A DNA stretch of 64,000 nucleotides from Escherichia coli (GTDB lineage Bacteria; Pseudomonadota; Gammaproteobacteria; Enterobacterales; Enterobacteriaceae), in the NCBI RefSeq assembly GCF_009931435.1, contig NZ_CP043414.1; one strand, written 5' to 3'. Under the pieces are notes generated by a model, which did not search any database, was not told where the DNA came from, and worked only from the letters and a program-made list of their open reading frames with translations. Position 1 is the stretch's first letter; the number at the start of each line of letters is the position of its first letter. Of the stretch, positions 4,080 through 7,001 are shown piece by piece. The translations under genes were made by a program, and so were the position numbers.

Positions 4080-5618
4080 ATGACCAACAATCCCCCTTCA
4101 GCACAGATTAAGCCCGGCGAGTATGGCTTCCCCCTCAAGTTAAAAGCCCGCTATGACAACTTTATTGGCGGCGAATGGGTCGCGCCCGCCGACGGCGAGT
4201 ATTACCAGAACCTGACGCCGGTGACCGGGCAGCTACTGTGCGAAGTGGCGTCTTCGGGTAAACGAGATATCGATCTGGCGCTGGATGCTGCGCATAAAGT
4301 GAAAGATAAATGGGCGCATACTTCGGTGCAGGATCGCGCGGCGATTCTGTTTAAGATTGCCGATCGAATGGAGCAGAACCTCGAACTTTTAGCGACGGCT
4401 GAAACCTGGGATAACGGCAAACCCATTCGCGAAACCAGTGCTGCTGATGTGCCGCTGGCGATTGACCATTTTCGCTATTTTGCCTCGTGTATTCGGGCGC
4501 AGGAAGGTGGGATCAGTGAAGTTGATAGCGAAACTGTGGCTTATCACTTCCACGAACCGTTAGGCGTGGTGGGGCAGATTATCCCGTGGAACTTCCCGCT
4601 GCTGATGGCGAGCTGGAAAATGGCACCCGCGCTGGCGGCGGGCAACTGCGTGGTGCTGAAACCCGCACGACTCACTCCGCTTTCCGTTCTGCTGCTAATG
4701 GAAATTGTCGGTGATTTACTGCCGCCGGGCGTGGTGAACGTGGTCAACGGTGCGGGCGGAGAAATTGGCGAATATCTGGCGACCTCGAAACGCATCGCCA
4801 AAGTGGCGTTTACCGGCTCAACGGAAGTGGGCCAACAAATTATGCAATACGCTACGCAAAACATTATTCCGGTGACGCTGGAGCTGGGCGGCAAATCGCC
4901 AAATATCTTCTTTGCTGATGTGATGGATGAAGAAGATGCCTTTTTCGATAAAGCGCTGGAAGGCTTTGCACTGTTTGCTTTTAACCAGGGCGAAGTTTGC
5001 ACCTGTCCAAGTCGTGCCTTAGTTCAGGAGTCTATCTACGAACGCTTTATGGAGCGCGCCATCCGCCGTGTCGAAAGCATTCGCAGCGGTAACCCGCTCG
5101 ATAGCGTGACGCAAATGGGGGCGCAGGTTTCTCACGGGCAATTGGAAACCATCCTTAACTACATTGATATTGGTAAAAAAGAGGGCGCAGACGTGCTCAC
5201 CGGCGGGCGGCGCAAGCTGCTGGAAGGCGAACTGAAAGACGGCTACTACCTCGAACCGACGATTCTGTTTGGTCAGAATAATATGCGCGTGTTCCAGGAA
5301 GAAATTTTTGGTCCGGTGCTGGCGGTAACCACCTTCAAAACGATGGAAGAAGCGCTGGAGCTGGCGAACGACACGCAATATGGCCTGGGCGCGGGTGTCT
5401 GGAGCCGCAACGGTAATCTGGCCTATAAGATGGGGCGCGGTATTCAGGCAGGGCGCGTGTGGACCAACTGTTATCACGCTTACCCGGCACATGCGGCGTT
5501 TGGTGGCTACAAACAATCAGGCATTGGCCGCGAAACCCACAAAATGATGCTTGAGCATTACCAGCAAACCAAGTGCCTGCTGGTGAGCTACTCGGATAAA
5601 CCGTTGGGGCTGTTCTGA
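4080..5618 (+). CDS. aldB: NADP-dependent aldehyde dehydrogenase
   Basis: 512-aa product from ATG at 4080 (the track ORF extends upstream in frame); preceded by AAGGAG; ALDH catalytic motifs ([16 protein letters not shown]). Confidence 0.9.
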
Positions 5619-5627
5619 TGTAAGAAG

Positions 5628-5664
5628 CTGGTCGCATCGGGTATTCATTGCCTGATGCGACGCT
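5628..5664. repeat. REP-like palindromic element / aldB terminator hairpin
   Basis: gtcgcatc...gatgcgac inverted repeat containing the REP consensus-like GCCTGATGCGACGC. Confidence 0.5.
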
Positions 5665-5895
5665 TTCGCGTTTTACCAATTCAAATGTCTACGTCTTGAA
5701 TGACTGAATATTGATTGAACTTAATTACGAGTCTCCTCGCATCTTTTCAACAAGTTACTGCACACCGTTATTCTTCTTCCGAACGGCATTCCTGAGTCAA
5801 CTTTATCCCCCTGACGGCCCATATAAATCGCGCTATCGTGATTGTTATTGCTAAATGTGTGTGTGTCGTGTGTATAATCATGGAAGGGCAGGGAT

Positions 5896-6081
5896 GTGAA
5901 AAGTGCAGACGTGATCGCCATCCTGAAGCAGCATGGCTGGGAACATATTCGAACCCGTGGTAGTCATCATCAGTTCCGCCACCCTGTTCATCCGGGTCTG
6001 GTGACGGTTCCGCACCCTAAAAAAGATATTAAGCCCGGTACGCTGGCGCAAATTGGGCGTCAGGCTGGTTTAACATTTTAA
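5896..6081 (+). CDS. HicA-family mRNA interferase toxin (predicted)
   Basis: 61-aa ORF with GTG start; motif RTRGSHHQFRHP and C-terminal PHPKKDIKPGTLAQIGRQAGL resemble the HicA/YcfA family; 16 nt upstream of a HicB-like ORF; TATAAT at 5873-5878. Confidence 0.6.
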   Translation: MKSADVIAILKQHGWEHIRTRGSHHQFRHPVHPGLVTVPHPKKDIKPGTLAQIGRQAGLTF

Positions 6082-6097
6082 AATTTCAGGAGGCAAT

Positions 6098-6508
6098 ATG
6101 TTTTATCCCGCCTATATCCACAGTGATCCTGACGGCAGCGCCAGCGGTTTTTTCCCTGATGTTCCAGGCTGTTATTTTGCTGGTGATACGCTGGACAACG
6201 CTTTCCAGGATGCGCGAAGTGCACTGGTCGCGCACTTCGAAACCTTATGCGAGATGAATGAAGAGTTGCCGCTTCCAGGCTCTGTGGAAACACATCTGGT
6301 CCAGCGTGCGCAGGACTTTATTGGCGGGCAATGGTTGCTGGTGGATATCAATATGAATCAGTTCGAAGGTCGGGCTGAACGTATCAATATTACGATGCCG
6401 AAAAGATTACTGAACAAGATTGATACCTACGTGCGCAATAACCCAGACTACGCCAACAGAAGTGCGTTTCTGGCGGAAGCTGCCCGGCGTGTATTGCCGG
6501 GCGTTTAA
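6098..6508 (+). CDS. HicB-family antitoxin with C-terminal ribbon-helix-helix domain (predicted)
   Basis: 136-aa ORF; N-terminal HicB-like fold signature (YPAYIHSDPDGSASGFFPDVPGCYFAGDT...ELPLP); C-terminal RHH-like segment INITMPKRLLNKIDTYV...NRSAFLAEAARRVL; SD AGGAGG 6 nt upstream of ATG. Confidence 0.6.
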   Translation: MFYPAYIHSDPDGSASGFFPDVPGCYFAGDTLDNAFQDARSALVAHFETLCEMNEELPLPGSVETHLVQRAQDFIGGQWLLVDINMNQFEGRAERINITMPKRLLNKIDTYVRNNPDYANRSAFLAEAARRVLPGV

Positions 6509-6840
6509 TCTCGCGTTTCGATGGTGAGCGGGCGGACCAGGCTGTACAGCCACAGACCAAAACAAGCGATGGTGCCAATCACCACGGTGAGGAACACACT
6601 GACTGACAGGCCTGCAAGCAATCCCGCAGGCAGGGCCAGCAGGCCGTGGATCACGGTGTCGTTCCATCTCACCTGATCGTAGCCAAACATGCCTAAAACG
6701 CCGCAAACCAGACCGTAAATCACCATTGGTGTTCCGAGGCCAATCAGCAATAAACGGTAGATAATTGAAGGTTTAATACGCTTTATCTGTACTGTGGATG
6801 TTTTACTGGGGTTATTCATTAGTTTGGTCAATAGTTCCAT
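6505..6840 (-). CDS. Hypothetical small inner-membrane protein (two or three predicted TM helices)
   Basis: 111-aa product from ATG at 6840 inside a 127-aa ORF; hydrophobic stretches IIYRLLLIGLGTPMVIYGLVCGVLGMF and LLALPAGLLAGLSVSVFLTVVIGTIACFGLWLY; convergent with the hicB-like gene and overlapping its 3' end by 4 nt. Confidence 0.4.
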   Translation of the reverse strand: MELLTKLMNNPSKTSTVQIKRIKPSIIYRLLLIGLGTPMVIYGLVCGVLGMFGYDQVRWNDTVIHGLLALPAGLLAGLSVSVFLTVVIGTIACFGLWLYSLVRPLTIETRD

Positions 6841-7001
6841 TATTTCAATATGATAAACCTCGACCTGTTGAAAAGCCAGGTAGCACACTTCAGAAAGTAT
6901 ATAAAAAACAATATGTCGTTATATAAATAAGGAAATTGCACTGCATCATGGCATTTCATAATATGCGTTAATTGTTCTTTTTTATATTCTCTGAGGGAAA
7001 T

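Follow-up and report, generated by a model that had tools for sequence, protein, structure and literature searches.

A conserved GT-rich repeat on the -10 hexamer of an aldB-linked hicAB locus of Escherichia coli is probably a HicB operator

In a 64-kb stretch of Escherichia coli DNA (the window), we closely examined a chromosomal, aldB-linked hicAB locus and the GT-rich tract in front of its first gene. The aldB gene ends at position 5618; a REP-like inverted repeat comes next, at positions 5631 to 5661. The toxin gene hicA (5896 to 6081, plus strand) has a GTG start and encodes a protein of 61 amino acids, in which a Pfam search found PF07927 with an E value of 1.9e-23 and 82.7 bits against a cutoff of 27. 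The protein is similar to HicA of B. pseudomallei (PDB 4c26 and 6g26; E = 1.2e-16 for 4c26), and the GTG at 5896 is the start given by PGAP for hicA in 12 E. coli records (protein WP_000833473.1). After a gap of 16 nt follows the antitoxin gene hicB (6098 to 6508, plus strand), encoding 136 amino acids with PF15919 (E = 8e-36, 123 bits in a Pfam search) and a C-terminal ribbon-helix-helix (RHH) domain with the β-strand ERINITMP. Among solved proteins, HicB aligns over its full length with 6g1n, the HicB of B. pseudomallei (E = 2.8e-25), and with 4p78, HicB3 of Y. pestis (E = 1.6e-21). Residues 2 to 133 are aligned with 6g1n, including ERINITMPKRLL...RSAFLAEAA, and the C-terminal RHH domain lies within the aligned part. 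By its predicted HicA domain, its HicB fold with RHH domain and the order toxin before antitoxin, the locus is a HicAB type II toxin-antitoxin locus with an RHH-type HicB.

Downstream of hicB, a minus-strand open reading frame of 127 amino acids comes first, followed by yiaW and yiaV. The reading frame (6505 to 6888) converges with hicB and overlaps it by 4 bp at the hicB stop codon; it had no Pfam match, and at its position RefSeq carries a shorter hypothetical protein (315 nt in strain E200086 and 144 nt in a hicAB-negative strain). Other lineages carry this hicAB in a different setting, in which a type I restriction endonuclease gene separates hicA from aldB and a GH127 glycoside hydrolase gene takes the place of yiaW. 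These alternative neighbors indicate that the aldB-yiaW interval is a variable island with several configurations.

Of 5,426 complete E. coli genomes, 505 (about 9%) carry the hicAB locus, among them strains named ST648 and ST69; it was always single and always chromosomal. The REP-like repeat, which is of the GCCTGATGCGACGCT type and lies directly 3' of aldB, is common to hicAB-negative genomes, and these have extra REP copies where hicAB would be. About 90% of the complete E. coli genomes are without hicAB and yet retain a remnant of about 70 bp of the hicB 3' end between aldB or the REP elements and yiaW. Of this remnant, 49 bp are 98 to 100% identical to their counterpart in the window (6425 to 6500). 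The remnant suggests that the presence of hicAB at this site is the ancestral state and that most lineages have lost it by deletion.

The preliminary description of the locus had placed a GT run directly against a TATAAT hexamer upstream of the hicA GTG, and the sequence at 5856 to 5878 bears this out. The run reads TGTGTGTGTGT at 5856 to 5866, followed by C at 5867, GTGTG at 5868 to 5872 and TATAAT at 5873 to 5878, which ends 17 nt 5' of the GTG. A Shine-Dalgarno-like GGAAGG at 5882 to 5887 (plus strand) has the form GAAGG or GAGGG across genera and lies 8 nt before the GTG. A single uninterrupted (TG)5T is present in the window, where 100 dinucleotide-preserving shuffles give an expectation of 0.01; Tandem Repeats Finder, run on the window with a minimum score of 30, did not call the tract as a tandem repeat. 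On closer inspection, the tract consists of two copies of the heptamer TGTGTAT set 9 bp apart, the second of which overlaps TATAAT. Heptad 1 (5859 to 5866, plus strand) forms the first part of the putative HicB operator; its conserved core is GTGTGTAT, which reads GTGTGTGT in the window owing to a G at 5865. Heptad 2 (TGTGTAT, 5869 to 5875, plus strand) begins 9 bp after the corresponding position of heptad 1, and it shares its last three bases with the start of the hexamer. To the left, a TGT at 5856 to 5858 (plus strand) extends the run only in Escherichia, other genera being different here, and is the seat of a 2-bp polymorphism of one GT unit.

TATAAT at 5873 to 5878 (plus strand), a perfect sigma-70 consensus, is probably the -10 hexamer of hicA. 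Its position 17 nt upstream of the gene and its conservation together with the Shine-Dalgarno sequence across enterobacterial genera make this part of the preliminary description plausible; TATAAT is kept in five of six genera-level orthologues and replaced by TGTAAT in the remaining one. Against it, a sigma-70 scan called no promoter at the tract and found no -35 hexamer with at least four of six matches at a spacing of 16 to 18 nt. The best -35 candidate, TTGCTA, lies 19 nt from TATAAT, a distance that the loss of one GT unit would reduce to 17 nt; TTGCTA is a minority allele, the majority reading TCGCTA. An extended -10 motif (TGn) is likewise absent, as GTG precedes TATAAT at -15 to -13. 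An Rfam search of 5500 to 6700 at E <= 1 gave no match.

Further upstream, a box at 5830 to 5842 (plus strand; GCGCTATCGTGAT, consensus GCGCTAnnGTGAT) is kept in Escherichia, Enterobacter, Lelliottia and Citrobacter amid diverged neighboring sequence. A terminator scan reported a hairpin at 5826 to 5843; this is no more than the E. coli version of the box, which in other genera does not form an inverted repeat, and we do not regard it as a terminator. A CRP-like arrangement can also be read at 5830 to 5853, centered about 27.5 bp before the -10 hexamer, with 7 to 8 of 10 core matches in E. coli.

For comparison with other species, HicA relatives were collected with one genome per species, and the upstream regions of the closest were aligned. 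The block GTGTGTAT-nn-(A/G)TGTGTATAAT-CATGGAAGG, which extends up to the GTG, is kept in Enterobacter soli, E. genomosp. O, E. chuandaensis, Lelliottia and Citrobacter, while the flanks have diverged, and GTGTGTAT-nn-TGTGTATAAT-CATGGAAGG is also found in Escherichia sp. E1V33. In all five Enterobacter, Lelliottia and Citrobacter orthologues, the GTGTGTAT core is identical and equals the majority E. coli allele, and the same orthologues share the upstream box GCGCTAnnGTGAT. Neither an inverted-repeat search nor inspection of the cross-genus alignment by eye revealed an inverted repeat around the -10 hexamer, which indicates that the enterobacterial site is not of a palindrome type.

Among 80 hicAB relatives, the density of TGTGTA or its reverse complement TACACA is 21.3 per kb within 80 nt 5' of hicA and 0.15 per kb elsewhere in the same loci, a 144-fold enrichment, and 57 of the 80 loci have the motif. 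In 49 of these 57, a TAnnnT hexamer begins with the TA of the motif, and TGTGTATAAT is found exactly in 17 relatives. Within 100 nt upstream of hicA, the motif is arranged in palindromes or direct repeats that usually embed a -10-like hexamer. The palindromes have the form GTGTGTAT-A-ATACACAC with the -10-like hexamer at the center, for example GTGTGTATAATACACAC. Pseudomonas loci carry GATGTGTAnnnTACACATC with a second TGTGTA site 31 to 32 nt upstream, Rhizobium loci ATTATACACA-n4-TGTGTATAAT, and Caballeronia loci, whose HicB C terminus is nearly identical to that of the solved B. pseudomallei HicB, carry GCGTGTGTAAAGCTACACACGC. Direct repeats at 9 to 10 bp are found in Acetobacter (GTGTGTATCGTGTGTATA, identical to E. 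coli), Paraburkholderia, Photorhabdus and others, so that direct and inverted arrangements switch among lineages.

Presence of the motif follows the β-strand of the HicB RHH domain. With the strand R-x-N-x-T/S, 57 of 58 loci have the motif, and with other strands 0 of 20 (Fisher 1e-17, a value that ignores kinship, many of the Pseudomonas and Rhizobium loci being close relatives). Loci with K-x-N-x-T in HicB have GGTnGTnATAATnACnACC palindromes instead, and those with the Firmicutes-type K-x-T-x-T have ACGTAT/ACGTGT repeats. In RHH proteins such as Arc, MetJ and CopG, alternating residues of the β-strand read the major groove. Since the motif covaries with precisely this strand, HicB itself is indicated as the binding protein. 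The pattern suggests a recognition rule for RHH-type HicB proteins, in which R-x-N-x-T/S would go with TGTGTA arms and K-x-N-x-T with GGTnGT arms; such a rule could help to predict operators in uncharacterized hicAB loci. A text search of the literature for HicB and TGTGTA returned only a cloning primer for S. meliloti that happens to hold GTGTGTAT just upstream of hicA, and a paper on HicAB of an IncI2 plasmid contained no operator data.

Taken together, the conserved repeat motif, which overlaps TATAAT and varies along with the HicB β-strand, is probably a HicB operator, and we hold with good confidence that the GT tract is such an operator on the -10 hexamer, that is, an ordinary element of toxin-antitoxin autoregulation. 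In the proposed mechanism, the R-x-N-x-T β-strand of the HicB RHH domain would bind the two TGTGTAT heptads at 5859 to 5875, which lie about one helical turn (9 bp) apart. Bound HicB would occlude the -10 hexamer at 5873 to 5878 and thereby repress transcription of hicAB, and an excess of HicA would lift the repression, which has been reported for relatives. Transcription would begin near 5885, giving a leader of about 11 nt that carries the Shine-Dalgarno sequence. The GT periodicity would then be that of the recognition sequence GTGTGTA(T) plus the short extension specific to Escherichia. Binding and repression by HicB are predicted here from homology to these relatives together with the conservation, enrichment and covariation described above. 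Running counter to the operator reading are the lack of a recognizable -35 hexamer and the presence of direct repeats, as opposed to the inverted repeats or palindrome published for other systems.

The mechanism of HicAB autoregulation is already established for relatives; what is different in Enterobacteriaceae is the use of direct rather than inverted repeats. Among the relatives outlined in PMC11594946, HicB of B. pseudomallei (Winter et al. 2018) is described as an RHH repressor whose palindromic binding site overlaps the predicted -10 hexamer, and HicB3 of Y. pestis (Bibi-Triki et al. 2014) as an RHH repressor whose operators BS1 and BS2 flank PhicA3, the main one overlapping the -10 hexamer. 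In Y. pestis, PhicA3 is repressed by HicB alone or by the HicAB complex, and in relatives excess HicA is described to destabilize the repressor-DNA complex (PMC11594946). The B. pseudomallei proteins are the closest solved relatives of those encoded here, and the orthologous Caballeronia loci with GCGTGTGTAAAGCTACACACGC share the TGTGTA core; as far as that account goes, the B. pseudomallei site is a single palindrome with inverted arms, whereas two direct heptads 9 bp apart are found here. Y. pestis HicA3-HicB3 likewise has an RHH HicB and, of two operators, the main one on the -10 hexamer; in the same account, however, BS1 and BS2 are inverted repeats of 15 bp, and hicA3 and hicB3 lie 174 bp apart compared to 16 bp here. 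HicA3 is only a distant match to the HicA studied here (E = 1e-4). The hicAB locus of E. coli K-12 (yncN-ydcQ; Turnbull and Gerdes 2017) shares the species, the gene order and autorepression by HicB that is relieved by excess HicA, but is described with a helix-turn-helix HicB, with hicO in a second promoter, with a CRP-S/Sxy-dependent P1 and at another chromosomal locus, the HicB studied here being of the RHH type (PMC11594946).

Mixed direct and inverted TGTGTA arrangements, as found across the hicAB loci, have a counterpart in other repressors. The Omega (ω) repressor of pSM19035 and MetJ bind as RHH dimers to units of 7 to 8 bp in direct or inverted orientation, about one helical turn or less apart. 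The likeness is one of arrangement, and HicB differs in forming a tetramer with two distal RHH dimers (PMC11594946).

The upstream box at 5830 to 5842 may be related to this system as well. It lies 32 nt 5' of heptad 2, close to the two-site spacing of 31 to 32 nt in Pseudomonas, and could possibly be a secondary or degenerate HicB site or, alternatively, an activator half-site. An activator half-site at its GTGAT would fit the missing -35 hexamer. In a different explanation of the tract, the GTGTGTAT repeats would have their role in the mRNA leader or be read by a factor other than HicB, such as a CRP/Sxy-like host regulator or another sigma factor. We regard this as improbable, but some observations speak for it. 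A promoter with no -35 hexamer makes an activator plausible, and the CRP-like box in front of it may indicate an activator-dependent promoter. The upstream box contains CGTGA-N6-TCGCT and in the -2 bp lineage described below CGTGA-N6-TCACT, the latter matching TGTGA-N6-TCACA in 8 of 10 positions. Moreover, K-12 hicAB is described as having a P1 that depends on CRP-Sxy, and B. pseudomallei as having a predicted CRP-S motif (PMC11594946). However, Enterobacter does not retain the right half of the CRP-like site, and the repeat motif follows hicAB across Alpha-, Beta- and Gammaproteobacteria and metagenome-assembled genomes while changing with the HicB β-strand, which points to the repressor of the locus itself. 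An element in the mRNA leader is disfavored by the lack of an Rfam match and by the occurrence of the motif in both orientations and in palindromes, which favors recognition of double-stranded DNA. HicB thus remains the preferred reader of the repeats.

The preliminary description had further suggested, as a speculation, that the GT run varies in length by slipped-strand mispairing and thereby alters promoter strength. As it had proposed, the tract was compared among isolates: representative alleles were aligned, and allele-specific exact-match queries of 78 to 82 nt were then run against the 5,426 genomes. The 505 carriers fall into three tract length classes, counted by exact match, so that variants rarer than about 1% could be missed. 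The majority allele (...CGCTAATTGTGTGTGTATCGTGTGTATAAT) gave 320 exact matches, its 80-mer being identical in genomes from many lineages. Hap B (TTGCTAAATGTGTGTGTATCG...) gave six. Alleles shorter by 2 bp make up 135 of the 505 carriers, divided into hap D (CACTAATTGTGTGTGTCG..., 58 matches including strains named ST648) and hap E (CACTAATTGTGTGTATCG..., 77 matches). An allele longer by 9 bp, a duplication of the 9-bp unit GTGTGTATC, was matched only in strain E200086; Tandem Repeats Finder calls it as 9 bp × 2.9 copies, and it adds exactly one heptad unit. The window's own 80-mer with its uninterrupted (TG)5T had no exact match in the 5,426 genomes. About 43 carriers hold minor SNP variants, and the roughly ten of these among the matches listed all had the common length. 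In a variable-gap pattern scan of metagenome contigs, 13 of 15 loci were of the common length and two were hap D. Counted in GT units, the run is 5.5 in the window and 3.5 to 4.5 in the common alleles.

All 135 genomes with the -2 bp allele share a linked CA flanking SNP, and the four of these loci that were fetched have one HicB allele (WP_022646255.1) and the same neighbors, the type I restriction endonuclease and GH127 genes. Synthetic queries with the -2 bp allele on the majority flank and with a +2 bp allele each had no exact match in the 5,426 genomes. The length differences are single historical events fixed in lineages and not recurrent slippage. Thus, tract length does differ among isolates (-2 bp in 135 of 505, +9 bp in one), but in three classes only, each fixed by lineage.

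These data bear on the idea that the (GT)n run is a contingency repeat in a promoter spacer, whose frequent slippage would switch or tune the strength of the hicAB promoter. Well-known repeats of this kind are the (TA)n of H. influenzae hifA/hifB and the poly-G of Neisseria porA, phase-variable promoter-spacer tracts that are longer and vary within clones. The run studied here resembles them as a short repeat between promoter elements, at about -13 to -29 relative to the presumed -10 hexamer, with differences of 2 and 9 bp among E. coli strains and, in the window, a TTGCTA that the loss of a GT unit would bring from 19 to 17 nt of TATAAT. It differs in having 3.5 to 5.5 units and a length fixed in lineages. 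At 5.5 units, and with no call by Tandem Repeats Finder, the tract is below the number of units typical of phase-variable simple sequence repeats, and in place of many recurring length alleles there are three classes, of which the -2 bp class is linked to a SNP, with the same two lengths in the metagenomes. Furthermore, the 5.5-unit form is private to the window, one 80-mer is unchanged in 320 genomes, neither the -2 bp allele on the majority background nor a +2 bp allele had an exact match, TTGCTA is the minority form against TCGCTA, and across genera the conserved core of the tract has the form of a heptamer and not that of a length-variable repeat. We therefore consider a contingency repeat very unlikely and withdraw the suggestion of slipped-strand phase variation, the GT-richness being explained by the heptamer. 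In its place stands a testable assignment for the aldB-linked hicAB, namely a -10 hexamer and HicB operator at 5859 to 5878. That the tract is functionless, a chance GT-rich stretch in a fast-evolving intergenic region with several indels among E. coli lineages (9 bp at 5785 to 5793, 2 bp in the tract and the 9-bp duplication), is scarcely credible given the 0.01 occurrences of (TG)5T expected per window, the core shared by five orthologues from three other genera with diverged flanks, and the 144-fold enrichment across the family.

Within the HicB operator reading, the GT periodicity would make the site mildly prone to rare slippage or misalignment, as in the single loss of 2 bp, the single gain of 9 bp and an A/G exchange at 5865 on several backgrounds; such mutations would become fixed in lineages rather than switch. 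The window differs from hap B solely by G for A at 5865, which makes its uninterrupted (TG)5T a private allele on the hap B background. The G replaces the most conserved A of heptad 1 (TGTGTA), turning TGTGTAT into TGTGTGT and thereby breaking the heptad. G at 5865 occurs on three flanking haplotypes, those of the window, of hap D (58 ST648-type genomes) and of Escherichia sp. E1V33. All four combinations of C or T at 5848 with A or G at 5865 exist, so that the four-gamete test fails, which indicates that A has changed to G repeatedly or that recombination has moved very short tracts. The A-to-G change could plausibly stem from a transient misalignment within the GT run by which the repeat is "perfected". 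Since heptad 1 is without its core A in the window, in the 58 ST648-type genomes and in E1V33, it may be dispensable.

The A-to-G change on three haplotypes, one loss of a GT unit and one gain of a 9-bp heptad could also be taken to mean that the GT periodicity is a mutational soft spot, which would make the HicB operator a slow evolutionary tuning knob for hicAB, distinct from phase variation. We consider this doubtful. If it were true, with recurrent, misalignment-templated changes that have a regulatory effect, lineages would retune toxin-antitoxin expression through the operator.

Two minor observations concern the surroundings of the promoter. Upstream of the operator, a 9-bp indel (GGCATTCCT) at 5785 to 5793 is absent in about one-third of carriers (20 of 60 sampled entries). 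In addition, a 1.2-kb contig of a metagenome-assembled genome labeled 'Collinsella sp.' carries the majority E. coli hicA promoter allele and a HicA 97% identical to that of the window; this contig is probably an E. coli contamination of the bin.
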